Shown: positions 35,598 through 52,570, counted from the first letter of the stretch. The stretch is 64,000 bases of DNA from Candidatus Brevefilum sp. (GCA_035376985.1 DAOSSA010000004.1:24-64023), one strand, 5' to 3'. Numbers and translations are program-made. Notes: generated by a model from the sequence alone, not told the origin.

Positions 35598-36953
35598 ATG
35601 CTGATCACCAATGGGAAACTGATACCATGGGGTTCTGAATATCAGGTCATGCCCGAGGGCTGGGGTCTTCTGATCCGCGATGGTGTGATTCAGAAGATTG
35701 CACCTCAAAATGAACTGATTAAGGATTATCCCGAAGAAGAAATTTTAGATGCCGGGGGTCAATACGTGATGCCGGGAAATATCTGCGCCCACACCCATTT
35801 TTACGGCGCTTTTTCACGCGGTTTGGGCATTCCTGGGGAGCCCGCCAGCACCTTTACGGAGATTCTGGAAAAACTCTGGTGGAATCTCGATAAAGCTCTG
35901 GATGAAGATGGCGTCCGCTATTCAGCACTGGTGTGTCTGGTGGATGCGATTAAGCACGGTACCACAACGTTAATTGACCACCATGCCTCACCCACTGCGA
36001 TTGATGGCTCATTGGATATCATCGCTGAGACGATAAACCAGGCTGGTCTGCGGGCATCCCTGTGTTACGAGGTCACCGATCGGGATGGGGCTGAAAAATC
36101 CGAGCAAGGTTTGCAAGAAAACCTGCGCTTTGTTAAGCGAATCCAGAATAGGGACCCGCAGGATTCGCTGCTGCGGGCGCATTTTGGCCTACACGCCAGC
36201 CTGACCCTGTCGGATGAAACCCTGTCTCGCGCGGAAGAACTTTGCCCTGCGGGGATTGGATTCCACATCCATGCTGCTGAGGGAATGGCAGACCAGGTCT
36301 TTAGCCTTGAAACCTCGGGAAAGCGGGTTGTCCATCGCCTGGATCAATTTGGGATATTGCGGCCCGAATCAATTTTGGCGCATGGCGTGCATCTGGACCA
36401 GGGTGAAATTGAACGCCTGGCAGAAACGCAAACCTGGCTGACGCACCAACCCCGTTCGAATATGAACAATGCCGTTGGCGTGGCTCCGATTGAAGATATG
36501 CTGGACGCGGGCATGCGAGTTGGTATGGGAAATGATGGTTTTTCTAATACGATGTGGTTGGAATGGAAAGAGGCGTACCTGCTGCACAAACTGTACCATC
36601 GCGATCCACAGCGGATGGGCGGTTACACCGTAACCAGGATCGCTGTTGACAACAACGCTGCGCTGGTGACTGAGCTGTTTGACGGCTTGCTGGTAGGCTG
36701 TATATCTGAGGGTGCCGCGGCTGATTTAATCTTCGTTGATTATCACCCCTTTACACCATTGACAGGCGGAAACCTGCCCTGGCATATCCTGTTTGGTTTC
36801 CAGGAAAGCATGGTCACAGCCACCATCGTCGCCGGTAAACCCCTGATGTACCAGCGACAGTTGATGACTCTTGATGAGGACGCGATCGCGGCCAGGGCGT
36901 TAGAAATTGCATCAGAGACCTGGAAACGGTTCGAAGAGATTGCTACCCAATAA
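35598..36953 (+). CDS. ssnA: SsnA-like amidohydrolase
   Basis: PGNICAHTHFY, GTTTLIDHHAS, HFGLHASLTLSD, FHIHAAE, HQPRSNMNNAVG, GNDG. Confidence 0.88.
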   Translation: MLITNGKLIPWGSEYQVMPEGWGLLIRDGVIQKIAPQNELIKDYPEEEILDAGGQYVMPGNICAHTHFYGAFSRGLGIPGEPASTFTEILEKLWWNLDKALDEDGVRYSALVCLVDAIKHGTTTLIDHHASPTAIDGSLDIIAETINQAGLRASLCYEVTDRDGAEKSEQGLQENLRFVKRIQNRDPQDSLLRAHFGLHASLTLSDETLSRAEELCPAGIGFHIHAAEGMADQVFSLETSGKRVVHRLDQFGILRPESILAHGVHLDQGEIERLAETQTWLTHQPRSNMNNAVGVAPIEDMLDAGMRVGMGNDGFSNTMWLEWKEAYLLHKLYHRDPQRMGGYTVTRIAVDNNAALVTELFDGLLVGCISEGAAADLIFVDYHPFTPLTGGNLPWHILFGFQESMVTATIVAGKPLMYQRQLMTLDEDAIAARALEIASETWKRFEEIATQ

Positions 36954-36991
36954 GCCTTTACCGGTTGAAAACAGAAGATAAGGAATACAGC

Positions 36992-37678
36992 ATGGTTGAT
37001 GAGACAAAACAATTGTATACACTCGGCATCGTTGGCGGGACAGGGAAAGAAGGCAAAGGTTTAGCTTACCGCTGGTTAAAAGCTGGGCATAAAGTCATTA
37101 TCGGCTCACGCAACTTTGAAAAAGCTCAGAAAGCAGTCGTAGAGCTGACTGAATTCATGGGCTATACCCCAGAAGGACTGAGCGGTATGGATAACAGGGC
37201 TGCCGTAGAAGCCTGTGACATTGCAGTGATAACCGTACCCTATGCCGGGCACAAATCTACCCTGGAAGATTTAAAAGATGCCTTGCAGGGCAAAATTGTG
37301 ATGGACGTTGTTGTCCCGCTTGTACCGCCGAAAGTTTCTAAGGTGCAAATGCCTGAATCGGGTTCTGCAGCGCAGGAAGCCCAGGCAATCTTAGGAGACG
37401 CGTGCCAGGTTGTGGATGCTTTTCAAAATATTTCTCATGAAAGGCTGTTGGGAGAGGGCGATACGGATTGTGATGTTTTGGTGTGCGGAAAAAGTAAGGC
37501 CGCGCGCGAGGTCGTGATCGGGTTGGTGGCTGATACCGGATTGAAGGGGTGGGACGCCGGACCGATTGAAAATGCGGTTGTTGTGGAAGGATTAACCTCG
37601 GTATTGATCGGTCTTAACCAGCAATACAAGGTGCATGTTGCCGGCATTCGCATCACCGGAATTTCTGATCAAACATAA
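36992..37678 (+). CDS. npdG: NADPH-dependent F420 reductase (F420H2:NADP+ oxidoreductase)
   Basis: GIVGGTGKEGKGLA, IIGSR, TVPY, DVVVPL, AFQNIS, DVLVCG, DAGPIENA. Confidence 0.92.
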   Translation: MVDETKQLYTLGIVGGTGKEGKGLAYRWLKAGHKVIIGSRNFEKAQKAVVELTEFMGYTPEGLSGMDNRAAVEACDIAVITVPYAGHKSTLEDLKDALQGKIVMDVVVPLVPPKVSKVQMPESGSAAQEAQAILGDACQVVDAFQNISHERLLGEGDTDCDVLVCGKSKAAREVVIGLVADTGLKGWDAGPIENAVVVEGLTSVLIGLNQQYKVHVAGIRITGISDQT

Positions 37679-37679
37679 G

Positions 37680-38447
37680 ATGGGACTGAACCTGATCCCA
37701 TTAGAAGGCTTTCCCCTGGTCAAGCCCGGGGATGACCTGGCGAGTCTGGTTGTAGAAGTTTTGGCAAAGAACGGCTTTTCGCTGCAAGACGGTGACATCG
37801 TGGTACTTGCGCAGAAGATTGTTTCCAAGGCAGAGGGCCGCCTGGTCAACCTGACAACAGTCGATCCCTCAGAAGCTGCGCTGGATTATGCACACATCAC
37901 TGGAAAAGACCCGCGTTTGGTCGAGTTGATTCTGTCGGAATGCCGGGAGGTCGTACGTGTCCGCCAGGGATTGATGATTGTCGAGCATCGCCTGGGTTTC
38001 ATCAGCGCCAATGCGGGCATTGATCATTCGAATGTTTCCGGTCCCTGGGGTGAGCCCAAAGATTGGGTTCTATTATTGCCTGAAGACCCGGATGCTTCAG
38101 CAGCGCACCTTCGGGCGCAATTGCAGGCTCGCTATGCTTGCCGCCTGGGCGTCTTGATCATTGATTCGCACGGGCGCGCCTGGCGTAATGGAACCATCGG
38201 GATGACGATTGGATTATCCGGGCTGCCGGGCCTGATCGATTTGCGCGGACAAGAGGACTTGTTTGATTTCCGCTTGCGGGTTACGCAGGTGGCTGCCAGT
38301 GATGAATTAGCAGCAGGCGCATCGCTGATGATGGGGCAGGCTCGGGAGGGGACTCCGGTAGTGCTGGCGAGAGGATTCCCATACCCGCTGCGTGAGGCAT
38401 CGCTGTCTGAGTTGATCCGGAACAAGGAATTCGACCTGTTTAGATGA
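37680..38447 (+). CDS. cofE: coenzyme F420-0:L-glutamate ligase (single domain)
   Basis: AQKIVSKAEGR, ANAGIDHSN, LLPEDPDASA, DSHGRAWRNG, DELAAGA. Confidence 0.93.
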   Translation: MGLNLIPLEGFPLVKPGDDLASLVVEVLAKNGFSLQDGDIVVLAQKIVSKAEGRLVNLTTVDPSEAALDYAHITGKDPRLVELILSECREVVRVRQGLMIVEHRLGFISANAGIDHSNVSGPWGEPKDWVLLLPEDPDASAAHLRAQLQARYACRLGVLIIDSHGRAWRNGTIGMTIGLSGLPGLIDLRGQEDLFDFRLRVTQVAASDELAAGASLMMGQAREGTPVVLARGFPYPLREASLSELIRNKEFDLFR

Positions 38448-38454: not shown

Positions 38455-39009
38455 ATGTACGCCATAATCAGCGAGTTAGATCAAGAATCTTCGGTCGTCG
38501 TCAAAGACCTGTGGGGCAGGTTGCGGGAGGCTTGCGGACTGATGGCAATTTATGAGCTCCCGACGCCGCACTTTACCTGGTTTGTTGCTGAAAACCTGGA
38601 TGTTCCTGCCATTGAGGACATTCTGGCTGAACTTTCCGCCAGCACCTGTCTGTTAACCAGCTATGTATTTGGCTTCGGTATTTTTTCTGGAGAAAGGCCG
38701 GTTTTTTATCTACCTTTGGTCAAATCGCAGGCGATGATAGATCTTCACAATGAAATTTGGCGCCGATCGATTGAGCATAGTGAGCAACCCAATCCATACC
38801 TTTCACCTTCTTTCTGGATGCCGCATATCACCCTGGCAATTAATGATATAACTCGGGAAAGCCTGGCATGTGCTCTTGAATCGGTTGCCTTTGACGCGGT
38901 GGAAATGGAAGTTTCTGGGAGTAACTTGATCGTTGTATCACAGAGCGATGCCTCATCAACGATGACTTATAAACGATTTTATTTTAAGAGTTACGGGAGC
39001 GTATTTTGA
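38455..39009 (+). CDS. 2H phosphoesterase (2'-5' RNA ligase/cyclic phosphodiesterase superfamily)
   Basis: Two intact HxT motifs: PHFTW and PHITLA. Confidence 0.8.
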
Positions 39010-39950
39010 AAGTTGTCGCATTGACCGGTGGGGTGGGCGGCGCAAAGCTGGTCAATGGACTGGCAGCGCTGCTATCACCGGAAGAGCTGAGTGTGATCGT
39101 CAATACTGGCGATGATTTTGACTGCTGGGGGTTGAGGGTCTGCCCTGACCTTGACACGGTGTGTTATACCCTGGCTGGTCTGGCCAACCCGAAGACGGGA
39201 TGGGGACAGAAAGATGAAACCTGGGAAATTCTTGAAAAGGTTAGAAACTTGGGCGGGTCGACCTGGTTTAAAATCGGCGATAATGATTTGATAACCCACC
39301 TGAGGCGAACAGAGCTGCTCTCGGAAGGGAAAGCGCTTTCATCCGTGACACAGAATTTGTGCTCAACCTGGGGCGTAAAACTCCAGGTTCTTCCAATGAG
39401 CGACGATCCTGTTCGGACCATTGTCCATACTGCAGAACACGGTGCGCTGGCATTTCAACGCTATTTTGTTCAGTTGGCCTGTCAACCGGTCGTGCGTGCA
39501 TTTGAATTTTGTGGGGCTGAGGTTGCGTCTCCCGCACCCGGCGCTCTTGCTTTGATTGATGAGGCTGATGTGGTCATCTTCACGCCCTCCAACCCCTTTG
39601 TCAGTATTGACCCGATCCTGGCAATTCCCGGGTATCGTCAAGCGATCAAAAAGAAGCCCGTCATCGCTATTTCGCCCCTGGTGGGCGGAAAAGCAATAAA
39701 AGGCCCTACTGCGAAAATGTACCACGAGCTGGGAATTGTGCCTTCAGCCTCAGCAGTTGCCGGGCACTATCAGGGTTTACTGTGGGGGTTTGTTTTTGAC
39801 ACGCAGGACCGAACTGAATTGGAAAAAATTGAGCGTTGGCGTATAATTCCATTACTTACAAATACCTTTATGAAAGATATTCAGGACCGCATTCGCTTGG
39901 CTGAAGAAGTGATAAAATTTTGCGAGTCGATCCTCACCAGGAGTTTTTAA
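39006..39950 (+). CDS. cofD: 2-phospho-L-lactate transferase
   Basis: [44 protein letters not shown]. Confidence 0.95.
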
Positions 39951-39954: not shown

Positions 39955-40569
39955 ATGAGTTTATGGACAATCGTTCCAGTTAAACCTTTACGACGCGGAA
40001 AATCGCGACTTTCGGAGATTCTCTCCGAAGATGAACGTTACCGACTTAATCATTACCTGTTATCCCATACCATTGACATATTATTACAGGTAGAAACAAT
40101 CTCAGAGATCCTGGTAGTCAGTCGAGATTCCGATGTGCTGACAATTTCTCGAGAAAAGGGTGTGCGCACGGTGACAGAGAATGGCACACCAGAATTGAAT
40201 AATGCATTGCGAAGAGCCTCTTTATTTTCAAAGCTGTTTGCAAATGAGGGTGTCCTCATTGTCCCGGCGGACTTACCCCTGATAACCTCTAAGGATGTTA
40301 GCGACTTTCTTGCACAGCGCAAAGAACCGCCGACCATGGTGATCAACCCTGATCGCCACCGGTTGGGTACAAATATGTTGTTCTTAAATCCGGCAGGTCT
40401 GATCAACTTTTCTTTCGGCACCGATTCTTTTGAATGCCATTGCAGATTGGCCAGGCAACAAGGTGCAGAGGTGATTGTTCATGAAAATCCACGCATCGCT
40501 TTAGACTTGGATGTTCCGGAGGATTATGAAATCCTCCAATCGAGCAATGTTTTACCAGTGCGACAGTAA
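39955..40569 (+). CDS. cofC: 2-phospho-L-lactate/PEP guanylyltransferase
   Basis: IVPVKPLRRGKSRLS, LNNAL, PADLP, GTN, SF..H, DLDVPED. Confidence 0.93.
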   Translation: MSLWTIVPVKPLRRGKSRLSEILSEDERYRLNHYLLSHTIDILLQVETISEILVVSRDSDVLTISREKGVRTVTENGTPELNNALRRASLFSKLFANEGVLIVPADLPLITSKDVSDFLAQRKEPPTMVINPDRHRLGTNMLFLNPAGLINFSFGTDSFECHCRLARQQGAEVIVHENPRIALDLDVPEDYEILQSSNVLPVRQ

Positions 40570-40600: not shown

Positions 40601-41602
40601 ATGACAATAGAAAGAGTAGCCCTGTATTTACAAGATGCCCATGACCTGCGAGATGGATTGGATTTTGTAAAATATGCTGAAGAGCGAGGTTTTGAGGCGG
40701 TTTGGCAGGCTGAAAGCCGCCTGGTTCGAGATGCCATTGTGCCAATGGCTGCCTATGCTGCAGTTACCGATAAAATCAAGGTTGGGTCTGGCGTCATCAA
40801 CAACTGGACCCGTAATATCGGTTTGCTGGCATCGACATTTCTCACGCTGGACGACCTGGCGCCAAACCGGATTATTTGCGGCATTGGCGCCTGGTGGGAT
40901 CCACTGGCAAAGAATGTGGGCATCGTCCGTAAAAGCCCAATGACGGCGATGGAAGAGACCATCACCGTCTTGCGTCGCCTGTTGAACATGGAACGGGTGT
41001 CGTTTGACGGCGAATATGTACATGTCACCGGGATTGAACTGGATGTGGTGCATGGTCGTCGTGAACCCCGGAATGTCCCGATTATGATCGGGGCAACTGG
41101 TCCAAAGATGATGGAGTTGACTGGAAAAATTGCAGATGGCGCTGTTTTAAATTACTGTGTTCCGCCAGAATATAATGAACAGGCGATTGATGAGCTGAAG
41201 AAGGGCTTGAAAGCATCTGGACGGACTTTGGATGATCTGGATCGCCCACAACTGGTTGTGTGCTCTGTCGACGAGGATGGCGAGAAAGCCAAAGACACCA
41301 GCCGTGAACTGCTGACGCAATACCTGGCACAACAGCCACATATTGCGAAGGCTTCCGGTGTTTCGATGGATATTGTGCACGAGATCCAGTCGATTCTTGG
41401 CTGGCCTGCCACGCATGAGCAAATCCAGCAAGCCAAGCACCTGGTACCGGATGAGTTGATCCATCGCATTACAGCCAGCGGCACCCCTGATGAGGCACGC
41501 GTCAAGGTGCAGGAATATATTAATAACGGTGCAACCTGCCCGATCCTCTACCCTGTTGGCGGCAATGTGAAGGTTTTGATTGATACTTTTGCTACAAAAT
41601 GA
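40601..41602 (+). CDS. luciferase-like (LLM) oxidoreductase, Mer-like, probably F420-dependent
   Basis: [34 protein letters not shown]...G..ADG; immediately follows the cof genes. Confidence 0.85.
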
Positions 41603-42078
41603 AATTAACTGAGAAACAACCTGGTTCGAAAACTTGTTTTGTGTGCGGCAGGGAAAACCTGGCTGGACTCAAACTTGAGTTTTATGTGATTGAACCCGGG
41701 AAGGTTTGTTCGTATTTTAACTTGCCTGAGCATTATGAGGGCTATCCCGGGACCATCCACGGCGGTATCATCGCTGCCATACTGGATGAATGTGGCGGTC
41801 GGGCTCAAATGACCGAGCCAAACCGATTTATGGTTACCGCTCAATTATGTATCCGTTATCGCCGACCGGTTCCATCGCGAACAGACCTGGTCGTCTACGG
41901 AGAAGCAGGTGAACGCCGAGGACGGGTATCCTTTGCCCGCAGCGAAATCCAGAGTGTAGATGGAAAGATTCTGGCTGATGCTGAATTGGTGCTGATGGAC
42001 ATTCCTGAATCTCAGTTTGCGGATGTGGATCTGGAAGCAATGGGTTGGCGGGTTTATCTTGATGAGGAGGCTGGATGA
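41599..42078 (+). CDS. PaaI-family hot-dog thioesterase
   Basis: [37 protein letters not shown]. Confidence 0.88.
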
Positions 42079-42848
42079 TTGGTGAATATTTCAGACCAAA
42101 GACAGTAGAAGAGGCGTTGTTATTATTAACCGAAAAGGGAAAGATTCGGAAACCTCTGGGTGGCGGAACCAGCTTGAGCCGGCAGGTATCACGACATTTC
42201 GACGTGGTCGACTTGCAAAACGTTGGTTTGGATCGCATTGAGGAAAGCGGTCAAAACTTAGTGGCAGGGAGCACGCTTCGTTTTGATTTGCTTTTAGCAC
42301 ACCCCGGGGTTCACCCTGAGATCAAGCGAGCAATCCGCATTGATGCTTCAGAAAACAACCGAAACATGGCTACCCTGGGCGGATGGATGGTGAACAGCGA
42401 TGGTCGTTCGCTGACGACAACCGCATTGCTGGCAATGGATGCAAATTTAACCTGGGAGCCAGAGGCTGTTCAGATACGGCTTGGCGATTGGCTGCCCCTG
42501 CGCAGTCAGAATCAACCCGGCGTGTTGATGACAGAGGTAGCCTGGACCACGGGCGCAAGGCTTGTTTTTGAGTATGTGGCGCGCTCTCCGAAGGACCGCC
42601 CAACCATGATTGTGGCTATGGCTCAGTGGGGTTCAGGCAGGACACGTGTGGCCTTGGGTGGCTTTGGCGATGCGCCCATCATCGCTGTAGATGGCATAGG
42701 AGCCGATGGGGTGGATATCGCCAGTCGGTATGCCTGTTTAGAGGCTGGAGATCAATGGGCGTCTGCGGAGTACCGGCGTGAGGTCGCTGCAAAACTTGCC
42801 TTGCGTTGTGCGGCGCGTGTGGATGCCATCAAAGGAAGTGGTGCCTGA
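42075..42848 (+). CDS. molybdenum hydroxylase FAD-binding subunit, YgfM-like
   Basis: EYFRPKTVEEAL, LGGGT, RNMATLGG; short (257 aa). Confidence 0.75.
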   Translation: MIGEYFRPKTVEEALLLLTEKGKIRKPLGGGTSLSRQVSRHFDVVDLQNVGLDRIEESGQNLVAGSTLRFDLLLAHPGVHPEIKRAIRIDASENNRNMATLGGWMVNSDGRSLTTTALLAMDANLTWEPEAVQIRLGDWLPLRSQNQPGVLMTEVAWTTGARLVFEYVARSPKDRPTMIVAMAQWGSGRTRVALGGFGDAPIIAVDGIGADGVDIASRYACLEAGDQWASAEYRREVAAKLALRCAARVDAIKGSGA

Positions 42849-42849: not shown

Positions 42850-45846
42850 ATGAAAATCATACTGAATATTAACAATCAAGACTATCCCCTTAATGTTCCT
42901 GTTGGCGAGCGTTTACTGGAAACCCTGCGAAGGCTTGGTTTTTTCAGTGTCAAGTACGGCGGATGTGAAAAAGGAGAATGCGGCGCATGTGCTGTGCTTT
43001 TTGACGGTCGCCCGGTAAATAGCTGCACAATGTTTACAGCCCAGGCTGAAGGTCACAAAATCCAGACCGTGGAAAGCCTGGGTGAACACCCGGAACAGGG
43101 TTGGAAACGGACGCAGGGTTTGCATATTATTCAGCAAGCCTTTGTCGATACGGGTGCGATCCAGTGCGGTTACTGTACGCCAGCCATGGTATTGGTGAGC
43201 AAAGCCCTGTTAAATAAAAACCCTTCGCCCTCGGAAGAGGAAATTCGTGATGCCCTTTCTGGCGTCCTGTGCCGCTGCACCGGTTATGTGAAGCCGGTAC
43301 AGGCCGTTATGCGAGCTGCGGCGACCATGAGGGGTGAAAAGGTTCCTCCCATTGGTGAGCCAATTGATATTGGTGATTTATTAGATTTTGATCGGGGTCT
43401 CCCGGAGGACGGTGCGCCGATGACCTCTGACGGCGGAACAATGACTGAAACGCTGGTCTTCCCGAAGATAAAGGTCGTTGATGCGCGTTCACCATTGAAA
43501 ACGGTGGGTCACGGTGAACCTAAGGTGGATGCGGTCAAACTTGTGCAGGGCAAACCAGCCTTTGCTGCAGATTTTGAAAGGCGGGACATGCTGGTAGCCA
43601 AGGTGCTGCGAAGTCCCCATGCCCACGCGAACATCAAGCACATTGATACCTCGGAAGCAGAGGCGCTTCCTGGTGTGGCAGCCATTCTTACCTGGAAGGA
43701 TATTCCCAGGGTTGTCTATTCTACGGCTGGACAATCGCATCCCATTCCGGGACCGTTAGACATGTTTTCACTGGACAAAAAGGTCCGCTTTGTAGGCGAC
43801 AAGGTGGCGTTTGTGGCTGCTGAAACAGCTGAGATCGCAGAAGCCGCGTTGAAACTGATCAAGGTGGAATATGAAGTCTTGCCTGCCATTATTGATCCCA
43901 CCAAAGCGATGGATGAAGGCGCTGTGGTCATTCATGATGAAGAAGAATACGTCAATTTTGATGAATCTGACCCCTCGCGCAACCTGGCTGCTGAGATCCG
44001 CGTGGATATCGGCGATGTTGAACAGGGTTTTGCCGAGGCAGAGCGCATCTTTGAAGCTGAATACGTTGTACCCAAGGTGCAGCAGGCGCATATCGAACCG
44101 CACGTGGTGGTGACATACTGGGATGAGGACGACCGCCTGGTGATTATCACCAGCACCCAGGTGCCCTTCCACGTCCGGCGCCAGATTGCTCCGGTGTTAG
44201 ATTTGCCGGTCAAGCGTATCCGGGTGATCAAACCCCGCATCGGTGGCGGTTTTGGCGGCAAGCAAGAAGTTCAGATCGAAGATGTTCCGGCACATCTGAC
44301 GATTGCGACGGGACGCCCTGTTATTTATGAAATGACCCGTGAGGAGGAATTTATTGGCTCCCGGGCACGCCATCCCATGCGCATTCGGTTGAAAACCGGG
44401 GTCAAGCAGGACGGCACGATAACTGCGAATGAAATGTACTGCCTGAGCGATACCGGCGCTTATGGGTGCCATGCTCTGACCGTGGCAGGAAATACCGGGC
44501 ATAAGGCGATGGCGCTGTATGTCGGTGACGGACCCTACCGCCAACAGCCCAATATCCGGTTTTATTCCGATGTTGTCTATACCAATACGCCGCCTTCAGG
44601 CGCCTTCCGTGGTTACGGTGTTCCACAAGGATTCTGGCCTGTTGAACGGCACATGGAGACAATTTCAAAAGCTCTAGGCATCGATCCGATTGAATTCAGG
44701 TTGATGAATGCCCTCAGACCAGGCGAGTTACACCCCTTCAGTACAGCCTGGAGCGAGGGACGAGAACCCAAGCCTGAAAAAGTGTACACGATTGGCCTGG
44801 AAGAGTGCGTCTATCAGGGCAGGATGGCCATTGATTGGGACCATAAGTTTGGTAACGCGGCATGGCACACCATCCCTGGCAGCGAGCATTTGCGCAAGGG
44901 AATTGGGGTTGCTATGGTGATGCAGGGGACTGCTATCCCCTACCTGGATATGGGCGGCGCCAGTATTAAAATGAATGATGACGGGTCATTTAACCTGCTG
45001 GTCGGCGCTACAGACCTGGGGACCGGTTCGGACACGGTATTGGGTCAGATGGCAGCCGAAACCCTGGGCGTTCGTTTGGACGATATCCTGGTGTATTCAT
45101 CGGACACGGATTTCACACCCTTTGATGTGGGTGCTTACGCATCCAGCACAACGTACATCTCCGGTACAGCAGTGGTCAAAGCAGCAGAGAAGGTCGCTGA
45201 GCAGATTCGCGAGCGGGCAGCCTTGATGTTTGCTGAAAATGGCGATGAGGTGGACCATAACGAGATACTGCTGGAAGACCGGAAGGCAATTGCACCTTCA
45301 GGCAATTCCTTCAGTATGGAAGAGATTGCCCTGCACGCGCTGCACGCATCCGATCAGAGGCAAATTATGGGAGTTGCTTCGCATGTGTCCCCGGTTGCTC
45401 CACCGCCTTTTGCAGCGCAATTTGCTGAGGTGACCGTTGATATTGAAACCGGTATGGTTACAGTGGATAAACTGGTTATGGCCGTTGATGGCGGTGTGAT
45501 CATCAACCCTGTCACAGCATCAGGTCAGGTTGAAGGCGGGATGGCCCAGGCCCTGGGTTACGCGGTGACCGAAGAAATGGTATACGATGATTTAGGACGG
45601 GCGAGGGAGCGTGACCTTGTGGACTATCACATTTTCCGCTCGGATGAAATGCCTGAACTGACGACTATTTTCGTGGAAACCTACGAACATTCACATCCTT
45701 ATGGCGCAAAAGCTGTTGCGGAAATCCCGCTGGATGGAGTTGCACCTGCTGTTGGTAATGCGATATTAGATGCGTGCGGAGTTTCACTGCACGAAATCCC
45801 TGCCTTGCCCGAGAAAATCTGGAAAGCTTTAACAACCTCGGAATAA
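42850..45846 (+). CDS. molybdopterin-dependent oxidoreductase with fused N-terminal 2x[2Fe-2S] domain, XdhD-like
   Basis: GCEKGECGAC, QCGYC, CRCTGY, IGGGFGGK, GAFRGYG, ASSTT, GQVEGG, AKAVAE. Confidence 0.9.
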   Translation: MKIILNINNQDYPLNVPVGERLLETLRRLGFFSVKYGGCEKGECGACAVLFDGRPVNSCTMFTAQAEGHKIQTVESLGEHPEQGWKRTQGLHIIQQAFVDTGAIQCGYCTPAMVLVSKALLNKNPSPSEEEIRDALSGVLCRCTGYVKPVQAVMRAAATMRGEKVPPIGEPIDIGDLLDFDRGLPEDGAPMTSDGGTMTETLVFPKIKVVDARSPLKTVGHGEPKVDAVKLVQGKPAFAADFERRDMLVAKVLRSPHAHANIKHIDTSEAEALPGVAAILTWKDIPRVVYSTAGQSHPIPGPLDMFSLDKKVRFVGDKVAFVAAETAEIAEAALKLIKVEYEVLPAIIDPTKAMDEGAVVIHDEEEYVNFDESDPSRNLAAEIRVDIGDVEQGFAEAERIFEAEYVVPKVQQAHIEPHVVVTYWDEDDRLVIITSTQVPFHVRRQIAPVLDLPVKRIRVIKPRIGGGFGGKQEVQIEDVPAHLTIATGRPVIYEMTREEEFIGSRARHPMRIRLKTGVKQDGTITANEMYCLSDTGAYGCHALTVAGNTGHKAMALYVGDGPYRQQPNIRFYSDVVYTNTPPSGAFRGYGVPQGFWPVERHMETISKALGIDPIEFRLMNALRPGELHPFSTAWSEGREPKPEKVYTIGLEECVYQGRMAIDWDHKFGNAAWHTIPGSEHLRKGIGVAMVMQGTAIPYLDMGGASIKMNDDGSFNLLVGATDLGTGSDTVLGQMAAETLGVRLDDILVYSSDTDFTPFDVGAYASSTTYISGTAVVKAAEKVAEQIRERAALMFAENGDEVDHNEILLEDRKAIAPSGNSFSMEEIALHALHASDQRQIMGVASHVSPVAPPPFAAQFAEVTVDIETGMVTVDKLVMAVDGGVIINPVTASGQVEGGMAQALGYAVTEEMVYDDLGRARERDLVDYHIFRSDEMPELTTIFVETYEHSHPYGAKAVAEIPLDGVAPAVGNAILDACGVSLHEIPALPEKIWKALTTSE

Positions 45847-45955: not shown

Positions 45956-46744
45956 ATGAACATTGTCGAGCTGTTGAATGAAGCTTTAGCAGAGGGAAAG
46001 CCTGTTGTGATGTGCACGATTGTGAACACAAAAGGTTCTGTGCCGAGGCACGCAGGCACCAAAATGCTGGTTTACAGTGAAGGGCATTTTGAAGGCACGG
46101 TTGGCGGGGGTGAGGTGGAAAACCGGATTCTTGCTGAAGCAATGGCAGCATTTAAAGATGGAAAAACCCGTTTTTTAACCTACGATATGATCGATCCTGA
46201 ACGCGGTGATGCAGGCATTTGCGGCGGGATTGTGACCGTCTTCGTGGAGCCGTTTCTGACATTGCCAACTGTCGTTGTCGTTGGCGCCGGGCATGTCGGG
46301 CGGCCGATTGTGCACCTGGCAAAGTGGCTTGGGTTTCGTGTGGTCGTGAGCGATGATCGCGAGGAACTGTGCACCCCGGAGGAAACACCAGGCGCAGACC
46401 TGTACCTGCCAGCCCTGATAAGCCAGATACCAGAAAAATTACCCCTGGATTCACGCACATTCCTGGTGCTGGTTACCAGGGGCTCGGATATTGATGTGGA
46501 AGGTTTGCCAGCCCTTTTAGAAACGGATGTGCCGTATATCGGCTTGATTGGTTCTAAACGGCGTTGGGCGCATACACAAGAGAAACTGATTGAAAAAGGG
46601 GTCTCGAAGGAAGCCTTGGCAAGGGTGAAATCACCGATCGGGTTATTTATTCATGCAGAAACGCCCAATGAAATCGCCATCAGCATTATGGCTGAGATCA
46701 TCGATCATTACAACCAGATGAAAAAACATTTTCAAAGAGCATAA
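45956..46744 (+). CDS. xdhC: XdhC/CoxF-family molybdenum cofactor insertion protein
   Basis: GSVPRHAGTKM, GTVGGG.VE, CGG, GAGHV, YIGLIGS, PIG, ETPNEIA. Confidence 0.9.
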   Translation: MNIVELLNEALAEGKPVVMCTIVNTKGSVPRHAGTKMLVYSEGHFEGTVGGGEVENRILAEAMAAFKDGKTRFLTYDMIDPERGDAGICGGIVTVFVEPFLTLPTVVVVGAGHVGRPIVHLAKWLGFRVVVSDDREELCTPEETPGADLYLPALISQIPEKLPLDSRTFLVLVTRGSDIDVEGLPALLETDVPYIGLIGSKRRWAHTQEKLIEKGVSKEALARVKSPIGLFIHAETPNEIAISIMAEIIDHYNQMKKHFQRA

Positions 46745-46761: not shown

Positions 46762-48180
46762 ATGTGGAAAAAATACATTTTAGCAGATTCAATTGAGGCA
46801 GCGGTTGCGGCTTTGACCGAAGCGGAAGAAACCGCGCGGATTATCGCTGGCGGTACCGATCTGATTCTTGAGCTGGAGCGTGGTACTCGTCAGGGCATCA
46901 GCACTCTGATTGATATCACCCAAATACCGGGTTTGGATGAAATTTGGGAAGACAGCGACGGCTTGATCCACATCGGTCCATTGGTGACTCATAATCACGT
47001 GCTGGCCTCACCGTTGATCCGTGAGAAAGCCTTTGCTCTCCTGCAAGCCTGTTGGGAGGTTGGCTCACCTCAAATCCGCAATCGAGGGACGGTCGTTGGC
47101 AATTTAGTAACAGCATCCCCGGCGAATGATACCATCAGCCCTTTGATGGCCCTTAAGGCAAAGCTCAGGCTGGTGTCAACTCGGGGAGAACGCATCGTCT
47201 CCCTGGAGGATTTTTACACTGGTGTACGCAAAACTGTGATGAAAAACGATGAAATCATTACGGAAGTATTCTTCCCAGCGCCTGGAACTCACCAGGTATC
47301 CTATTTTATTAAAACAGCCCTGCGCAAAGCCCAGGCAATCTCAGTCATTAATATCAGCCTTCTGCTGTCGATACAGGGAGATGTGATCGATGATGCCAGG
47401 ATTACCCTGGGTGCAGCTGCGCCAACGATCATCCATGCTGAGGCAGCGGAAGCCTTTCTTTCCGGAAAGCAGTTAAGCGACACAGTGATTGAACAGGCGG
47501 CTGAATTGGTGGCTGAGGCTGCATCACCGATTTCGGATTTGCGCGGCTCCGCCGATTATCGGGCGTACATGATGGGCGTAATCGCACGACGAGCTTTGAC
47601 CGCCATTGCCAACGGTGTCGATAAAACCCAAATTCCGAGTGAACCGATTTTGCTGATGGGGTCGGGCTTGCATGTAAAAGCACCCCAATTGCCCTGGACG
47701 GGCGAGGAGATCCACACCTGGATCAACGGGAAGGAATATCGTTTTAGAACAGGATTTTCAAAGACATTATTAAATTTGATCCGTGATGAGGCGGGGTTAA
47801 CCGGCACGAAAGAAGGTTGCGCTGAAGGTGAGTGCGGCGCCTGTACGGTTTACTTGGATGGCAGGGCAGTGATGAGCTGCCTGGTACCGGCGCCCCGGGC
47901 GCATGGCGCAGAGATTGTAACGATCGAGGGCATGCGCGCTGGTGAAAAATTGCACCCGGTTCAGGAAGCTTTCATCGAACACGGCGCAGTTCAATGCGGT
48001 TTTTGTACTCCCGGGTTTGTGATGTCAGCGGTCAAGTTGCTTGAAGAGCGCGAAACCCCTTCACAGGCTGAGATCCGGCAGGCAATTACCGGGAACCTGT
48101 GCCGCTGTACAGGCTATTATAAGATCATTGAAGCGATTGAGAGCGCCAGCCAGCGGATGCATGCTGGTGACCAGGTATAA
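46762..48180 (+). CDS. xanthine dehydrogenase FAD-binding subunit fused to a C-terminal [2Fe-2S] subunit
   Basis: IAGGTD, SPQIRNRGT, then GTKEGCAEGECGAC, QCGFC, GNLCRCTGY. Confidence 0.9.
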   Translation: MWKKYILADSIEAAVAALTEAEETARIIAGGTDLILELERGTRQGISTLIDITQIPGLDEIWEDSDGLIHIGPLVTHNHVLASPLIREKAFALLQACWEVGSPQIRNRGTVVGNLVTASPANDTISPLMALKAKLRLVSTRGERIVSLEDFYTGVRKTVMKNDEIITEVFFPAPGTHQVSYFIKTALRKAQAISVINISLLLSIQGDVIDDARITLGAAAPTIIHAEAAEAFLSGKQLSDTVIEQAAELVAEAASPISDLRGSADYRAYMMGVIARRALTAIANGVDKTQIPSEPILLMGSGLHVKAPQLPWTGEEIHTWINGKEYRFRTGFSKTLLNLIRDEAGLTGTKEGCAEGECGACTVYLDGRAVMSCLVPAPRAHGAEIVTIEGMRAGEKLHPVQEAFIEHGAVQCGFCTPGFVMSAVKLLEERETPSQAEIRQAITGNLCRCTGYYKIIEAIESASQRMHAGDQV

Positions 48181-48198: not shown

Positions 48199-50409
48199 AT
48201 GGCATATATTGGTAAATCTGTAACACGGATTGATGTCAGAGACAAAGTTACGGGAGAAGCACTTTACCCCGCTGACTTTTCGCTGCCAGACCAGGCATAT
48301 ATGAAAATTCTATTTGCAGGGAGACCTCACGCAGTGGTCAAAGCGATCGACACAACTGCGGCAGAAGCCATGCCCGGCGTTCTGGCTGTATTGACGGCAA
48401 AGGATGTGCCGGTGAACGAATACGGGCTAGGAACGAACGATCAGCCTGTTTTGTGTGGACCGGGGTCATCCAAACCCTTCGCGGATCGGGTACGGTTTGT
48501 GGGAGACCAGGTGGCGCTGGTTCTGGCTGACACTGAGCAGATTGCAGCTGAAGCTTGCAAGAAGATCGTCGTTGACTATGAAGATCTGCCGGTGTTTGAT
48601 TCGCCAGAGGCTGCCATGGTGGATGATGCCGTCTTGCTGCATCCGGATCATGGGTCAAATGTTATTCTTGAATATCAAATCTTGCATGGTGATGTGGAAT
48701 CCGCATTTGGCGATTGCGATGTAATTGTAGAATGCGAGTATCACACACCAATGCAGGAGCATGCATATCTGCAGCCTGAAGCCGGGGTCAGTTATTTCGA
48801 CGAGGAAGGACGGGTCACGGTTGTTGTGGCCGGTCAATGGACACATGAAGATCGAAACCAAATTGCCCATTCGCTGGACCTTCCCCTTGACCGGGTGCGG
48901 GTGATATACCCGGCGATTGGCGGCGCATTTGGCGGTCGTGAGGATATGTCGGTGCAGATTGTACTGGCGTTAGCTGCTAAATATTTACATGACCGGGGGA
49001 TCAACCGTCCGGTAAAAGTCGTCTGGAGCCGAGAAGAATCGATCATTGGTCATCACAAGCGCCACGCCTACAAACTGGTTGCTAAATGGGGTGCCACAAA
49101 AGATGGGAAGATCATCGCTGCCCAGGTGGATGTGACGGCTGATGGCGGCGCGTATGTGTACACATCGAACAAAGTGCTTGGCAACGCTACATTGATGAGC
49201 ATCGGCCCCTATGAGATTCCCAACGTGCAGGTGAATTCGAGGGCAGTGTATACGAACAACGTTCCAGGGGGCGCATTTCGCGGATTTGGCGGACCGCAAG
49301 GGGTGTTTGAGGCGGAAATGCAGGTCAATCGCCTGGCAGAAGCTTTGGGTATGGACCCGGTTGAGTTGAGAATGCGCAATTTGATTGAAGACGATTCGAT
49401 TTTGTGCACCAATACCAAGCCACCCAAGGGCGTGACGATTAAACCCGTGTTGGAAGTTTGTGCAACCAGGGCTGGCTGGGCTAACACGGACACAGGCTGG
49501 AACGCGCCGGCGAAAATGGGTTCCACAGATGCCCTGAAACGCGGCCGCGGCTTGGCGGTTGCTTTCAAGAATATTGGTTTTTCATTTGGTGCAAAGGAAA
49601 ATTGCCATGCAAAAATTGAATTGCATGGAAAAACAGAGATTGAGCGCGTTGTGTTATATCACGCTGGTGCAGAGGTGGGCCAGGGTGCGCACACAATTTT
49701 CAAGCAGTTCGCTGCTGAAGCTCTGAATGTTCCGCTGGAGAAAATCGAAACGGAGTATTCAGATACAGCTTTTACCGGAGATGCAGGCAGTGTTTCAGCA
49801 TCACGAATGACCTTTATGGCGGGTAACGCGATTAAGGGAGCGGCAGATTTAGCTCTGGAGAAATGGGCAGCAGAAGAACGGCCTGCAATCGGTGATTATG
49901 TCTATTTTGCACCTCCAACCTCACGTTATGCACCTGTTACCGGGGAGTGTTATCCAAATATTTCTTATGGTTATGTGACAGAAGTGGTTGAGCTGGAAGT
50001 GGATACAGAATCTGGCAATGTCCGGATATTGAAGATCTATTGTGCGGACGATGTCGGTAAGGCGATTAACCCGATGCAAGTTGTCGGTCAGATTGAAGGT
50101 GCACTGGTCCAGGCGGTGGGATATGCAGTCCTGGAAAACTTCATCCACAAGGGTGGATACGTCCAAACCAATTTGTTGTCGAATTATTTAATTCCCACGG
50201 TGTTGGATATCCCGGATGAAATTGAATCAATCGTCCTGGAATACGCTGAACCCAACGGCCCATATGGTGCACGGGGTATGGCTGAGATGCCTTTTCTGCC
50301 ATTAGCACCAGCGGTGATGCATGCGATGTATGATGCGACCGGTGTGTGGTTCCACGAATTTCCCCTCACGCCGGAACGGGTGCTGCGGGGTTTGGGAAAA
50401 ATAAAATGA
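48199..50409 (+). CDS. xanthine dehydrogenase/purine hydroxylase molybdopterin-binding subunit
   Basis: QEHAYLQPE, IGGAFGGR, GAFRGFG, SASRMT, GQIEGA, GARGMAE. Confidence 0.92.
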   Translation: MAYIGKSVTRIDVRDKVTGEALYPADFSLPDQAYMKILFAGRPHAVVKAIDTTAAEAMPGVLAVLTAKDVPVNEYGLGTNDQPVLCGPGSSKPFADRVRFVGDQVALVLADTEQIAAEACKKIVVDYEDLPVFDSPEAAMVDDAVLLHPDHGSNVILEYQILHGDVESAFGDCDVIVECEYHTPMQEHAYLQPEAGVSYFDEEGRVTVVVAGQWTHEDRNQIAHSLDLPLDRVRVIYPAIGGAFGGREDMSVQIVLALAAKYLHDRGINRPVKVVWSREESIIGHHKRHAYKLVAKWGATKDGKIIAAQVDVTADGGAYVYTSNKVLGNATLMSIGPYEIPNVQVNSRAVYTNNVPGGAFRGFGGPQGVFEAEMQVNRLAEALGMDPVELRMRNLIEDDSILCTNTKPPKGVTIKPVLEVCATRAGWANTDTGWNAPAKMGSTDALKRGRGLAVAFKNIGFSFGAKENCHAKIELHGKTEIERVVLYHAGAEVGQGAHTIFKQFAAEALNVPLEKIETEYSDTAFTGDAGSVSASRMTFMAGNAIKGAADLALEKWAAEERPAIGDYVYFAPPTSRYAPVTGECYPNISYGYVTEVVELEVDTESGNVRILKIYCADDVGKAINPMQVVGQIEGALVQAVGYAVLENFIHKGGYVQTNLLSNYLIPTVLDIPDEIESIVLEYAEPNGPYGARGMAEMPFLPLAPAVMHAMYDATGVWFHEFPLTPERVLRGLGKIK

Positions 50410-51227
50410 AACCGTTTGTGCTCATCCGGGGCGGCGGCGACCTGGCAAGCGGGGTTGCGATTCGATTGCATCGGGTGGGCATTCCTGTTTTAATTGTTGA
50501 AACCAACCAACCAACGGCCGTGCGGCGTTCAGTTGCCTTTGCACAGGCAGTTTATGATGGTGAAGCATTGATCGAAGGCACAGCCGGACGATTGATCGGA
50601 TATCCAGAAGAGATGCTGTCTTGCTGGAACGAGGGCACGGTGCCGGTCATGGTTGACCCCGAACTGGAATTGATTTCAGTTTTCAAACCATTGGTGATTG
50701 TTGATGGGCGGATGCGAAAAACCAGCCAGGTTCTTTCCCTGGATATGGCGCAACTGGTGGTTGGGTTGGGACCGGGATTTACAGCGGGTGAGAACTGCCA
50801 TGCAGCGATTGAAACTAATCGAGGACATTTTCTGGGACGGGTTTACTGGCAGGGCAGTCCGCAAGCAAATACCGGCATCCCAGGGGAGGTTGAGGGTTAT
50901 ACTCGGGAGCGGGTGTTGTATGCCCCGACTGATGGAATTGTTCAGACCCTGGTTGATTTTAGCGACCATGTGCAGCCAGGTGACCCGGTGATTACTATCG
51001 GAAATCAGACCATAAAGGCGTCTCTTGCGGGCCTTGTGCGTGGGCTGATCCACCCGGGTATTTGGGTTAAGCAAGGCACAAAGGTAGCCGATATTGATCC
51101 GCGAACTGAAGATTTTCGCTGCTGGACAGTTTCAGAAAAAGCCCTGGCGATAGGCGGTGGGGTTTTGGAGGCAATTTTGACCCAACCTGAAATTCGTGCT
51201 TCCCTGTGGAATGAACTGGACCAATGA
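50406..51227 (+). CDS. yqeB: selenium-dependent molybdenum hydroxylase system protein YqeB (EF2563 family)
   Basis: VLIRGGGDLASGVA, AVRRSVAF, LGPGF, ETNRGH.LG, GTKVADIDPR, SEKALAIGGGVLEA. Confidence 0.92.
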   Translation: MKPFVLIRGGGDLASGVAIRLHRVGIPVLIVETNQPTAVRRSVAFAQAVYDGEALIEGTAGRLIGYPEEMLSCWNEGTVPVMVDPELELISVFKPLVIVDGRMRKTSQVLSLDMAQLVVGLGPGFTAGENCHAAIETNRGHFLGRVYWQGSPQANTGIPGEVEGYTRERVLYAPTDGIVQTLVDFSDHVQPGDPVITIGNQTIKASLAGLVRGLIHPGIWVKQGTKVADIDPRTEDFRCWTVSEKALAIGGGVLEAILTQPEIRASLWNELDQ

Positions 51228-52570
51228 ACCTGAGGCTGGCGCTCGGATTAACTGGTGTTGAGACGATTGCCTTTACAGGCGCTGGCGGGAAGACCAGCGC
51301 CATGGCAACCCTGGCTATGGAACTGCCACCGCCTGTTGTGATGATCACTACCACGCACCTGGGAAAGTGGCAAGAAGGCATCGCCCAGCAGCATATCATT
51401 ATCACATCGCCTGATGCTTTGAAGAAAAGTGACTTGTTGGGCTTGAAGACGATCCTGGTCACCGGACCTCCCGGTAAAGATGAACGCTGGGGAAGCCTTA
51501 ACCCGGAATCGCTTGAGAAACTATCCCGGATATGCCGTGAAAACGAGGTGCCCTTGCTGATTGAAGCGGATGGCGCTCGTCAATGCCCGCTTAAAGCGCC
51601 TGCAGATTACGAACCGGTGATTCCATCCTGGGTTGACCGGGTGGTGGTTATGGCCGGGCTGGGCGGCCTAAGAAGACGATTGAGTGCGGATACGGTACAC
51701 AGGCCGGAGTTGTTTTCGCAAATAGCCGGTCTGGCGATGGGGGAGGAAATCAAAGTTGAGCATGTGGAACGAGTGTTGCGCTCAACTTCGGGTGGCTTAA
51801 AAGGGACACCGGTTGGGGCGCGCCGAATTTTGTTCTTGAACCAGGCAGAGGATTCGGTTCGGAAAGCCCAGGGGAACAGGCTGGCTAATGCACTTGAGGA
51901 TGTTTACCAGCGGGTGCTGATTGGTTCGCTGGCACAGCCAGAAGCGGACGGACCGGTGTTCAGTGCGCACAGCCAAACGGCTGGTATTATCCTCGCTGCT
52001 GGTGGAAGTGAGCGATTGGGAGTTCCCAAACAGTTTTTAGATTGGTGCGGAAAACCGTTTATCGTCCAGGTGGCGCAAACTGCGCTAACGGCTGGATTAT
52101 CCCCGATGGTCGTGGTTACCGGTGCCCGCCAGACTGAAATAGAGACAGGTTTGGCAAATCTACCGGTCAGGTGTGTGTATAACCCTGAATGGGCGTCGGG
52201 GCAAGCATCATCGCTGAAGGTTGGCTTGAAATCCCTGCCCGACCATTGTGATTGCGCCATGTTTTTGCTCAGCGATCAGCCACAAATTACATCGCACCTG
52301 GTCCGTCAGTTAATTGAGCGGCATCATGCGGTGCGTGCACCGATTACCGCTCCGATGATCCGCGAGCGTCGGGGAAACCCGGTGCTGTTTGCCAGGCAAA
52401 CTTTTGGCGCGTTACGGGAAGTCAGCGGCGATCAGGGCGGGCGAGCCATATTTAACGCTTTTAAAGTTGACTATCTCCCCTGGGTTGATGAGCGTGCCCA
52501 GCTGGATGTTGACCAGGACAGCGACCTGAATAACCTGATCGAGCAGTATTTTGGTGGGCAAGCAAATTAA
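51224..52570 (+). CDS. yqeC: YqeC fused to a MocA-like molybdenum cofactor cytidylyltransferase
   Basis: GAGGKT, LIEADGA...PLKAP (YqeC), then ILAAGGSERLG..K, GQASS, LSDQP, DVD (NTP_transf_3). Confidence 0.9.
   Translation: MNLRLALGLTGVETIAFTGAGGKTSAMATLAMELPPPVVMITTTHLGKWQEGIAQQHIIITSPDALKKSDLLGLKTILVTGPPGKDERWGSLNPESLEKLSRICRENEVPLLIEADGARQCPLKAPADYEPVIPSWVDRVVVMAGLGGLRRRLSADTVHRPELFSQIAGLAMGEEIKVEHVERVLRSTSGGLKGTPVGARRILFLNQAEDSVRKAQGNRLANALEDVYQRVLIGSLAQPEADGPVFSAHSQTAGIILAAGGSERLGVPKQFLDWCGKPFIVQVAQTALTAGLSPMVVVTGARQTEIETGLANLPVRCVYNPEWASGQASSLKVGLKSLPDHCDCAMFLLSDQPQITSHLVRQLIERHHAVRAPITAPMIRERRGNPVLFARQTFGALREVSGDQGGRAIFNAFKVDYLPWVDERAQLDVDQDSDLNNLIEQYFGGQAN

Follow-up and report, generated by a model that had tools for sequence, protein, structure and literature searches.

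Genes for F420 recharge and tail building within a putative reductive urate pathway cluster of an anaerobic Anaerolineales bacterium

The window analyzed here, a 64,000-nucleotide (nt) stretch of DNA from Candidatus Brevefilum sp. (GCA_035376985.1 DAOSSA010000004.1:24-64023), contains at positions 35598-52570 a gene cluster in which predicted enzymes of anaerobic purine degradation flank genes for the recharge and side-chain assembly of cofactor F420. The cluster probably encodes the upper part of the urate-reducing (reductive urate) pathway in an anaerobic member of the Anaerolineales, rebuilt around F420 and dependent upon an outside supply of FO, the head group of that cofactor. The purine part of this arrangement is known already, as is a printed prediction of an F420-dependent reductase, while the embedded cofactor cassette, the order-wide lack of an FO synthase and the variants of the cassette appear to be new.

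The cluster consists of 15 open reading frames (ORFs), all on the plus strand (Table 1), in the order ssnA, fno/npdG, cofE, a 2H phosphoesterase gene, cofD, cofC, the gene of a Mer-like luciferase-like protein (hereafter LLM), a hotdog-fold gene, ygfM-like and xdhD-like genes, xdhC, the genes of a flavin adenine dinucleotide (FAD)/Fe-S subunit and a molybdenum (Mo) subunit, yqeB, and a yqeC-mocA fusion. When start codons best backed by Shine-Dalgarno motifs and hidden Markov model alignment are used, the first seven intergenic distances are +38, +1, +7, -4, +4, +31 and -4 nt and the last seven are -4, +1, +109, +17, +18, -4 and -4 nt, with the +109 nt gap falling at the xdhD/xdhC junction. These values agree exactly with an earlier note on this DNA, made from the sequence alone, which had described 15 co-oriented genes separated by gaps of 1-38 nt or 4-nt overlaps and one gap of about 110 nt; all 15 ORFs are present at the positions it gave. 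A divergent pyroglutamyl peptidase gene (pcp) bounds the cluster upstream and mrp/apbC, approximately 190 nt past yqeC-mocA, bounds it downstream. Gene identities were assigned by Pfam and NCBIfam profile searches, in which bit scores were compared with the curated (equivalog) cut-offs.

Table 1. Features of the cluster and its immediate surroundings, with window coordinates and the profiles or motifs on which each assignment is based.
Feature	Coordinates	Strand	Basis
Promoter-like extended -10 element, TGaTATAAT	35542..35550	+	read from sequence; 48 nt before ssnA start
Shine-Dalgarno motif of ssnA, AGGAG	35586-35590	+	read from sequence
ssnA, amidohydrolase predicted to act on reduced 2,8-dioxopurine by opening its pyrimidine ring	35598..36953	+	NF005540, TIGR03314
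fno/npdG, NADPH:F420 oxidoreductase	36992..37678 (ORF open from 36965)	+	TIGR01915, PF03807
cofE, F420-0:gamma-glutamyl ligase	37680..38447 (ORF open from 37635)	+	TIGR01916, PF01996
2H phosphoesterase	38455..39009	+	PF13563, 34 bits (cut-off 27); HxT motifs PHFTW, PHITL
cofD, 2-phospho-L-lactate transferase (FO + LPPG -> F420-0)	39006..39950	+	TIGR01819
cofC, guanylyltransferase activating the three-carbon (C3) linker acid	39955..40569	+	TIGR03552
Mer-like luciferase-like hydride transferase (LLM)	40601..41602	+	PF00296, 212 bits
Hotdog-fold PaaI/THEM4-like protein	41599..42078	+	PF03061, E 1.6e-9; 4-nt overlap with both neighbours
ygfM-like, FAD-binding subunit of XdhD-type enzyme	42075..42848	+	PF00941, 64 bits
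xdhD-like, fused 2Fe-2S and molybdopterin subunit	42850..45846 (ORF open from 42778)	+	TIGR03313 (best match)
xdhC-type molybdenum cofactor (Moco) insertion chaperone	45956..46744	+	PF02625, PF13478
FAD + 2Fe-2S subunit, second molybdenum hydroxylase	46762..48180	+	PF00941, PF03450, PF01799
Molybdopterin subunit of second hydroxylase, PucD/XdhA-like	48199..50409	+	PF01315, PF02738, PF20256
yqeB, selenium-dependent molybdenum-hydroxylase maturation protein	50406..51227 (ORF open from 50346)	+	TIGR03309
yqeC-mocA fusion, selenium cofactor protein and Moco cytidylyltransferase	51224..52570	+	TIGR03172, TIGR03310, PF12804
mrp/apbC, Fe-S cluster carrier	52761..53798	+	PF10609, PF01883

Biochemical studies of E. 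coli and C. sporogenes have resolved the reductive urate, or 2,8-dioxopurine, pathway (Li et al., 2025, PMC12507026; Liu et al., 2025, bioRxiv 10.1101/2025.04.24.650524). Specifically, xanthine dehydrogenase (XDH) yields urate, which the selenium-dependent enzyme XdhD-YgfM (DOPDH, for 2,8-dioxopurine dehydrogenase) dehydroxylates to 2,8-dioxopurine, and the lower steps lead via HyuA, YgeW with YqeA (ATP-yielding), YgeY and YgeX to pyruvate (Li et al., 2025; Liu et al., 2025). Between these two parts YgfK, an NADPH-dependent Fe-S flavoprotein, dearomatizes 2,8-dioxopurine, with product seen only when ring hydrolysis by SsnA is coupled to the reduction (Li et al., 2025). The earlier note had described the E. 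coli-type locus as linked to urate degradation; this wording is outdated since the individual steps are now assigned. In the gene neighbourhood network of the former study the Chloroflexota lack YgfK and UacX, and a single sentence offers, as a prediction only, a putative F420-dependent luciferase-like reductase in the SsnA neighbourhoods of that phylum; cofC, cofD, cofE and fno go unmentioned (Li et al., 2025). In view of that sentence, the statement of the earlier note that no described pathway with this coupling was known is not entirely correct any more, though in print the coupling is still a prediction. The purpose of the F420 genes of Chloroflexota was named an open question in a 2021 FEMS review of the cofactor.

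Comparison with the E. coli ygeW-xdhD region and the gene clusters of Clostridium sporogenes and C. difficile reveals several shared or candidate shared components, including SsnA, a putative XdhD-type dehydroxylase with its FAD subunit, a second enzyme of the xanthine dehydrogenase type, YqeB, YqeC, MocA and SelD, as well as a hydantoinase, YgeY, a putative carbamoyltransferase and a carbamate kinase, which are encoded here on another contig. The present system differs in that YgfK and UacX are missing and a Mer-like LLM and Fno are found instead, in that F420 tail genes lie within the operon, and in that the upper and lower modules occupy separate loci with no clear YgeX. In contrast to E. 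coli, two genes, xdhC and yqeB, together represent YqeB, and yqeC and mocA form a single fused gene.

The LLM is proposed to substitute for YgfK as an F420H2-dependent reductase of 2,8-dioxopurine (yanthine). Among its NCBIfam matches, the 17 best belong without exception to LLM families that depend on F420 (Mer first; E 1e-52 to 3e-17), compared to E 1e-9 for the best FMN-dependent family, and the nearest solved structures in a PDB search are those of Mer (E 9e-44, full length), with Fgd at E 1e-15. It is the most conserved product of the cluster, with a median identity of 81% across a sample of 80 related LLM loci versus 49-68% for its neighbours, and its close homologues (77-94% identity) come from Anaerolineales (Chloroflexota) only, the nearest being labelled Brevefilum and Anaerolineaceae. 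Since the LLM is the sole PF00296 protein of the genome, and a genome search for FrhB gave no match over cut-off, it is the only candidate F420 user among the families searched, and the cofactor cassette appears to be dedicated to it. A search for FDOR-A (PF04075) likewise gave no match, though its control failed in the same manner and the search is uninformative.

The chemistry of the published intermediates indicates what such a reductase would have to do. Because C6 of 2,8-dioxopurine becomes the CH2 of ureidomethyl-hydantoin, the two-electron step would correspond to delivery of a hydride onto the C6=N1 imine, making C6 of that bond the most likely site of attack. By analogy, this imine carbon is of the kind that Mer-type enzymes reduce with F420H2, such that Fno and the LLM would together be the equivalent of NADPH-dependent YgfK. 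In comparison with Mer (PDB 8QQ8, 1Z69, 1F07), the LLM matches the same luciferase-like TIM-barrel family over its full length and would be expected to reduce an imine-type carbon in an N-heterocycle by direct hydride transfer from F420H2. With the Mer profile NF002619 its score is 179 bits (cut-off 276) and with TIGR03555 it is 173 bits (cut-off 349), hence the LLM is not itself Mer, and its context is purine catabolism.

The products of the purine genes that accompany the LLM were compared with curated families and with E. coli proteins. SsnA scores 490 bits with NF005540 (cut-off 444) and 455.5 bits, exactly the cut-off, with TIGR03314; its full-length identity to the E. coli protein is 36%, and its function is assigned after Li et al. 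(2025). The XdhD-like protein, which shares 37% identity with its E. coli counterpart along the full length, contains the XdhD-specific loop that is missing from XdhA, and within it Glu660 aligns with E. coli Glu606, the residue singled out by Li et al. (2025). For the second molybdenum hydroxylase, the Mo subunit scores 555 bits with the pucD profile TIGR03196, under the cut-off of 784, and the FAD + 2Fe-2S subunit matches the NCBIfam XdhA-small, XdhB and XdhC-like profiles, in all cases below cut-off; queries with E. coli proteins also find this second enzyme in the genome. We infer that the XdhD-like protein would be the urate 6-dehydroxylase (DOPDH) and the second hydroxylase a xanthine/hypoxanthine dehydrogenase, both roles being proposals.

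Maturation of these enzymes is represented by several genes. The xdhC product corresponds to the N-terminal half (residues 1-253) of E. coli YqeB, with 36% identity, and the yqeB product, with 342 bits against a cut-off of 220 for TIGR03309, is 49% identical to residues 260-524; the 541-residue E. coli protein is therefore represented in the window by two genes with the second Mo enzyme between them. Within the fusion protein, the YqeC part (residues 15-225) scores 157 bits with TIGR03172 (cut-off 73), and the MocA part (residues 254-436) matches TIGR03310 with 134 bits (cut-off 186) as well as PF12804. SelD is encoded on contig C26 (29702-30628) and scores 335 bits against a cut-off of 125, so that the selenium-cofactor trait is represented by YqeB, YqeC and SelD, all over their cut-offs. 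The single in-frame TGA of selD suggests that SelD is probably selenocysteine-containing, which implies the presence of selenocysteine-decoding machinery. The relatives of the hotdog protein in the PDB are thioesterase-superfamily proteins, and a homologue lies 3' of the LLM gene in 25 of the 57 loci with sufficient downstream sequence.

All four recognized F420 genes of the cluster score above the cut-offs of their families: Fno with 201 bits (TIGR01915, cut-off 150; an AAGGA motif precedes the ATG at 36992), CofE with 263 (TIGR01916, cut-off 181), CofD with 321 (TIGR01819, cut-off 257) and CofC with 155 (TIGR03552, cut-off 105). CofE consists of the ligase domain alone, without the nitroreductase domain of the FbiB type. 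The PDB chain nearest to CofC is 7P97, a 3-phosphoglycerate enzyme, and this resemblance suggested a CofC of the 3-phosphoglycerate-F420 type. Such a specificity was rejected on the alignment, in which the diagnostic Ser162 and His145, whose roles in the Mycetohabitans enzyme have been described (PMC8764529), are replaced by Gly and Leu, respectively; because of these replacements, CofC is predicted to be of the ordinary 2-phospholactate/phosphoenolpyruvate (PEP) type.

Were the linker to derive from PEP, an FbiB-like dehydro-F420-0 reductase would be required, and no close homologue of one is found in the genome: the best match to the nitroreductase of related cassettes is 30% identical (E 2e-4). 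As the genome lacks a close nitroreductase but carries the 2H gene, the 2H phosphoesterase, for which a sequence search returned no PDB relative, is a candidate for saturated-linker chemistry, or else for metabolite repair. Related cassettes vary at this point. The 2H gene lies between cofE and cofD/cofC in 22 of 61, and a nitroreductase resembling the FbiB C-terminus, often with pyrophosphatase-like and PPOX/FDOR genes, occurs in 23; three carry both and 19 carry neither, such that the two sets are mostly mutually exclusive (Fisher p 0.005, uncorrected for phylogeny). Nitroreductase genes between cofE and cofD are seen at loci L009, L015, L030, L032, L041, L055, L062, L080 and others, where the protein is sometimes fused with the pyrophosphatase-like domain and accompanied by a small protein of the PPOX/FDOR type. 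A further variant, ssnA-fno-cofE-(FDOR)-cofC-LLM, in which cofD is missing from the cassette, is seen at loci L090 (genome G013, a closed chromosome) and L091 (genome G018); neither genome has a CofD match anywhere at E ≤ 1e-20. A set of cofC and cofE without cofD or cofG/cofH is outside the canonical F420 pathway.

Compared to canonical F420 biosynthesis in methanogens, actinobacteria and Thermomicrobia, which employs CofG/CofH or FbiC, CofC/FbiD, CofD/FbiA and CofE/FbiB, the cluster has in common CofC, CofD and a CofE of the single-domain, archaeal type, each over cut-off. The system differs in the lack from the genome of both an FO synthase and an FbiB-type reductase, in the 2H phosphoesterase gene between cofE and cofD, and in its location in a catabolic operon as opposed to a housekeeping set. 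A partial precedent exists in actinobacterial picrate degradation (Npd/Fht), where a gene for NADPH:F420 oxidoreductase likewise stands beside one for an F420H2-dependent ring-dearomatizing reductase; here the reductase family and substrate are different, the host is anaerobic, and the tail cassette lies in the same operon.

The genome (2.35 Mb in 35 contigs, 98% complete) contains no match to the FO synthase proteins CofG and CofH even at E 0.001, so that only the side chain of F420 can be made, and the claim of the earlier note that the pathway builds its own F420 does not hold. Most of the order likewise lacks FO synthase. In a sample of 151 Anaerolineales genomes, CofD scores above its cut-off in 124, compared with 12 for CofH; CofH is missing from 115 of the 127 CofD-carrying genomes and from 93 of the 105 that have both LLM and CofD. 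Each of the 12 CofH-positive genomes carries a canonical CofH together with the same LLM and CofD. An assembly gap as the cause of the missing cofG/cofH was considered and is ruled out by closed genomes from within the organism's genus and family, which contain no CofH or FO synthase. Nor is CofH found in any of the eight genus- or species-named genomes searched, which represent Anaerolinea (including a metagenome-assembled genome of A. thermophila), Brevefilum, Levilinea, Bellilinea and Longilinea. The simplest reading is that FO would be taken up from F420 producers of the same habitats. Nothing relevant to salvage of FO or to auxotrophy for F420 was found in the literature searched.

The remainder of the genome was searched for other components of the urate pathway. 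With the E. coli protein as query, YgfK is absent, the sole return being a partial match of the GltD type. The only PF01180 protein is encoded by a PRK07565 gene resembling dihydroorotate dehydrogenase (DHOD) on contig C3 (55888-56913, minus strand), which adjoins the gene for pyruvate:ferredoxin oxidoreductase (PFOR; 57006-60599), is unlinked to the cluster and lies far from both purine clusters; no canonical PyrD was detected in the genome. The second purine cluster is situated outside the window on the minus strand of contig C3, at about 85,900-98,200, and is likely the lower half of the urate pathway. It comprises genes for 8-oxoguanine deaminase, YgeY, a GntR-type protein that is a candidate regulator, a carbamoyltransferase resembling ornithine carbamoyltransferase (OTC) and YgeW, carbamate kinase, a threonine-synthase-like pyridoxal phosphate (PLP) enzyme, a glycosyltransferase, a CysK-like PLP enzyme and D-hydantoinase. 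Hydantoinase (492 bits, cut-off 393), YgeY (466, cut-off 321) and carbamate kinase (397, cut-off 358) all score over their cut-offs. A third set of xanthine-dehydrogenase-type FAD, 2Fe-2S and Mo subunits is encoded on contig C1 (173,694-177,357), outside both purine clusters.

Whether cof genes also lie within ssnA/xdhD loci of other genomes was a check proposed in the earlier note, and the linkage is indeed found to recur. The order ssnA-fno-cofE-(cofD)-cofC-LLM, followed by ygfM/xdhD, is repeated in dozens of Anaerolineales species, and a scan of species genomes identified at least 592 carriers of the LLM. Among the 60 loci with sufficient upstream sequence, ssnA, fno and cofE lie 5' of the LLM gene in 56 and cofC in 57, while an XdhD-type or other Mo subunit lies 3' of it in 41 of the 57 with sufficient downstream sequence; in several of the remaining loci the Mo genes are upstream of ssnA. 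In the cultured species Bellilinea caldifistulae the cluster is present but lacks the 2H and hotdog genes. Across the 151 genomes, and uncorrected for phylogeny, the odds ratio for co-occurrence is 28 for LLM with SsnA (104 with both, 11 with LLM alone, 9 with SsnA alone, 27 with neither) and 6.7 for LLM with CofD (105, 10, 22 and 14, respectively). In one genus of the same family (g5), ssnA is kept while LLM and CofD are both missing. A clean displacement, with YgfK or UacX beside ssnA in LLM-negative, SsnA-positive relatives, was sought and not found: ssnA stands alone in these genomes, in one case with a mocA-like gene. Within 10 kb of the LLM gene, none of the 80 loci contains lower-pathway genes, the only matches being cross-matches to ssnA.

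Near-identical DNA occurs in metagenomes from activated sludge, anaerobic digesters and bioreactors. Furthermore, contigs of at least 99% identity from four anaerobic-digester metatranscriptomes cover the whole cluster, and single contigs cross nine gene junctions in the stretch ssnA-xdhD and at yqeC-mocA/mrp, namely ssnA/fno, fno/cofE, cofE/2H, 2H/cofD, cofD/cofC, cofC/LLM, LLM/hotdog, hotdog/ygfM/xdhD and yqeC-mocA/mrp, the last by one contig covering 51674-53401. In three runs, coverage of housekeeping neighbours is patchy, with peaks at the gene for ribosomal protein L9, a pattern resembling that of RNA. These are unstranded assembled contigs of low depth in which DNA may have been carried over, and one run (X27) is nearly flat; they are compatible with transcription of the cluster in situ and with its co-transcription, and prove neither.

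Together these data suggest the following scheme. The enzyme composed of the FAD/Fe-S and Mo subunits would oxidize hypoxanthine and xanthine to urate, from which the XdhD-like and YgfM-like proteins would strip the 6-oxo group to give 2,8-dioxopurine. The LLM would then transfer a hydride from F420H2 to C6 of 2,8-dioxopurine, the step performed by YgfK in E. coli, and ring hydrolysis by SsnA would draw this unfavourable reduction forward, while Fno would recharge F420 from NADPH. XdhC, YqeB, YqeC-MocA and SelD, the last encoded elsewhere, would mature both selenium-dependent molybdenum enzymes. CofC, CofD and CofE would add the phospholactyl-oligoglutamate tail to FO taken up from F420 producers such as methanogens. 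Finally, the ring-opened products would be converted by the enzymes encoded on contig C3 to ATP, ammonia and pyruvate. The suggestion of the earlier note that an anaerobic heterocycle-degradation pathway uses F420 as its hydride carrier survives as the most economical reading, stripped of the de novo synthesis of the cofactor.

Several observations weigh against this scheme. The LLM does not reach the cut-off of any named LLM family in NCBIfam, and the assignment of its substrate as 2,8-dioxopurine, which we infer, consequently rests on context. Two of its presumed partners also fall short of their families: the YgfM-like protein has only a weak TIGR03312 match (43 bits, cut-off 241), and the best NCBIfam match of the XdhD-like protein, TIGR03313, gives 707 bits against a cut-off of 1102. 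In the lower half of the pathway, the carbamoyltransferase of contig C3 is below both the YgeW and the OTC cut-offs, and no YgeX (diaminopropionate ammonia-lyase) in the genome is over cut-off, the nearest candidates being the threonine-synthase-like (closest) and CysK-like PLP enzymes of contig C3. With regard to the cofactor, no FO transporter is evident in the cluster or upon clustering of all ORFs of the 80 loci, and to our knowledge none is known. The 22 genomes with CofD and without LLM indicate that F420 has other uses in the order, and ten LLM-positive genomes, one a closed chromosome, have cofC and cofE without cofD and fit poorly with a simple FO-to-F420 scheme. To these may be added the uncorrected phylogeny behind the co-occurrence statistics, the character of the metatranscriptome contigs, and the fact that in this lineage the pathway steps are predictions from gene content.

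Alternative readings can be weighed against the same evidence. The LLM might reduce another N-heterocycle or a pterin-type compound, or serve another purine step, leaving 2,8-dioxopurine to an unrecognized enzyme. Its position below all curated cut-offs would allow for this, Mer, its closest characterized relative, acts on a pterin derivative, Moco/pterin maturation genes share the operon, and a DHOD-like flavoprotein is encoded elsewhere in the genome. Nevertheless, the ssnA-fno-cof-LLM core is kept even where the Mo genes sit elsewhere, and the pairing of ssnA with the LLM gene mirrors both the adjacency and the enzymatic coupling of YgfK and SsnA in E. coli; the odds ratio of 28, the absence of YgfK and the location of the DHOD-like gene beside PFOR, remote from the purine genes, point in the same direction, and we regard a different substrate as unlikely. 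Slightly less probable still is full synthesis of F420 by way of an unrecognized, non-homologous FO synthase. Tail genes that remain intact across the whole order argue for reliable availability of F420, and Bellilinea and Anaerolinea isolates grow in pure culture; however, purine catabolism is dispensable in rich media, where growth would call for no F420. Moreover, CofG and CofH are lacking at E 0.001 in closed relatives too, the 12 genomes with CofH use the canonical enzyme, and none of the 80 cassettes contains a candidate radical-SAM gene.

It is also conceivable, if improbable, that CofC, CofD and CofE use some head group different from FO, producing a cofactor that is not F420, or that imported F420 or F420-0 is merely retailored. 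The missing FO synthase, the relatives with cofC and cofE and no cofD, and the differences between lineages in accessory genes (2H phosphoesterase, nitroreductase, pyrophosphatase-like, PPOX/FDOR) would be accommodated by such a proposal. Yet the scores of CofC, CofD, CofE and Fno are without exception above equivalog cut-offs, the client enzyme has its place among LLMs that depend on F420, all 12 CofH-positive genomes have the same LLM and CofD, and import of finished F420 would make CofC and CofD superfluous. That the two gene sets simply inherited their adjacency and share no function is very improbable: the 22 genomes with CofD and the 9 with SsnA that lack LLM show that each may occur apart, but 4-nt overlaps suggestive of translational coupling run throughout the cluster, the gene order is kept in at least 56 species whose proteins are merely 50-60% identical, genomes of genus g5 lack both LLM and CofD, and transcript contigs cross the junctions.

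If the cluster is indeed an F420-based upper module of the reductive urate pathway, it offers a concrete physiological role for F420 in Chloroflexota, and the dearomatizing step would exist in three forms, namely NADPH/YgfK, ferredoxin/UacX and F420H2/LLM. A broader proposal, which we advance tentatively and with less conviction than the assignment of the cluster itself, is that most Anaerolineales, abundant bacteria of digesters and sediments, keep only the tail half of F420 biosynthesis, within a purine operon, and depend for purine/urate degradation upon FO from methanogens or other producers. Very common members of methanogenic reactors appear in this case to be reliant on an outside F420 head group, a form of cofactor-precursor cross-feeding undescribed in the literature searched and possibly a second reason for the better growth of Anaerolineales with methanogens. 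Likewise, the accessory variants (2H versus nitroreductase, pyrophosphatase-like and PPOX genes, as well as the cassettes lacking cofD) would mark undescribed linker chemistries. For engineered urate degraders that already make F420, the compact pair of Fno and the LLM could be a simpler choice than the 1032-residue Fe-S flavoprotein YgfK. Cultured carriers such as Bellilinea caldifistulae make the whole model testable.

Upstream of the cluster, the 291-nt ssnA leader (35307-35597, from pcp to ssnA) matches no Rfam family even at permissive thresholds, and for the window as a whole the sole Rfam match is a tRNA, with no known riboswitch. Generic promoter and terminator consensus scans of the region gave no excess over shuffled expectation; the extended -10 element listed in Table 1 may nonetheless act as the ssnA promoter. 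At the other end, mrp/apbC is possibly co-transcribed with the cluster, its membership in the operon being uncertain. Two additional genes recur in related loci. A DHH/CBS-type protein, resembling family II inorganic pyrophosphatases by its motifs, is encoded after xdhD in 24 loci (for example L050:15245-16597), and in 19 loci, among them that of Bellilinea caldifistulae, a gene for a short predicted membrane protein (about 125 residues) separates those of the FAD/Fe-S and Mo subunits.

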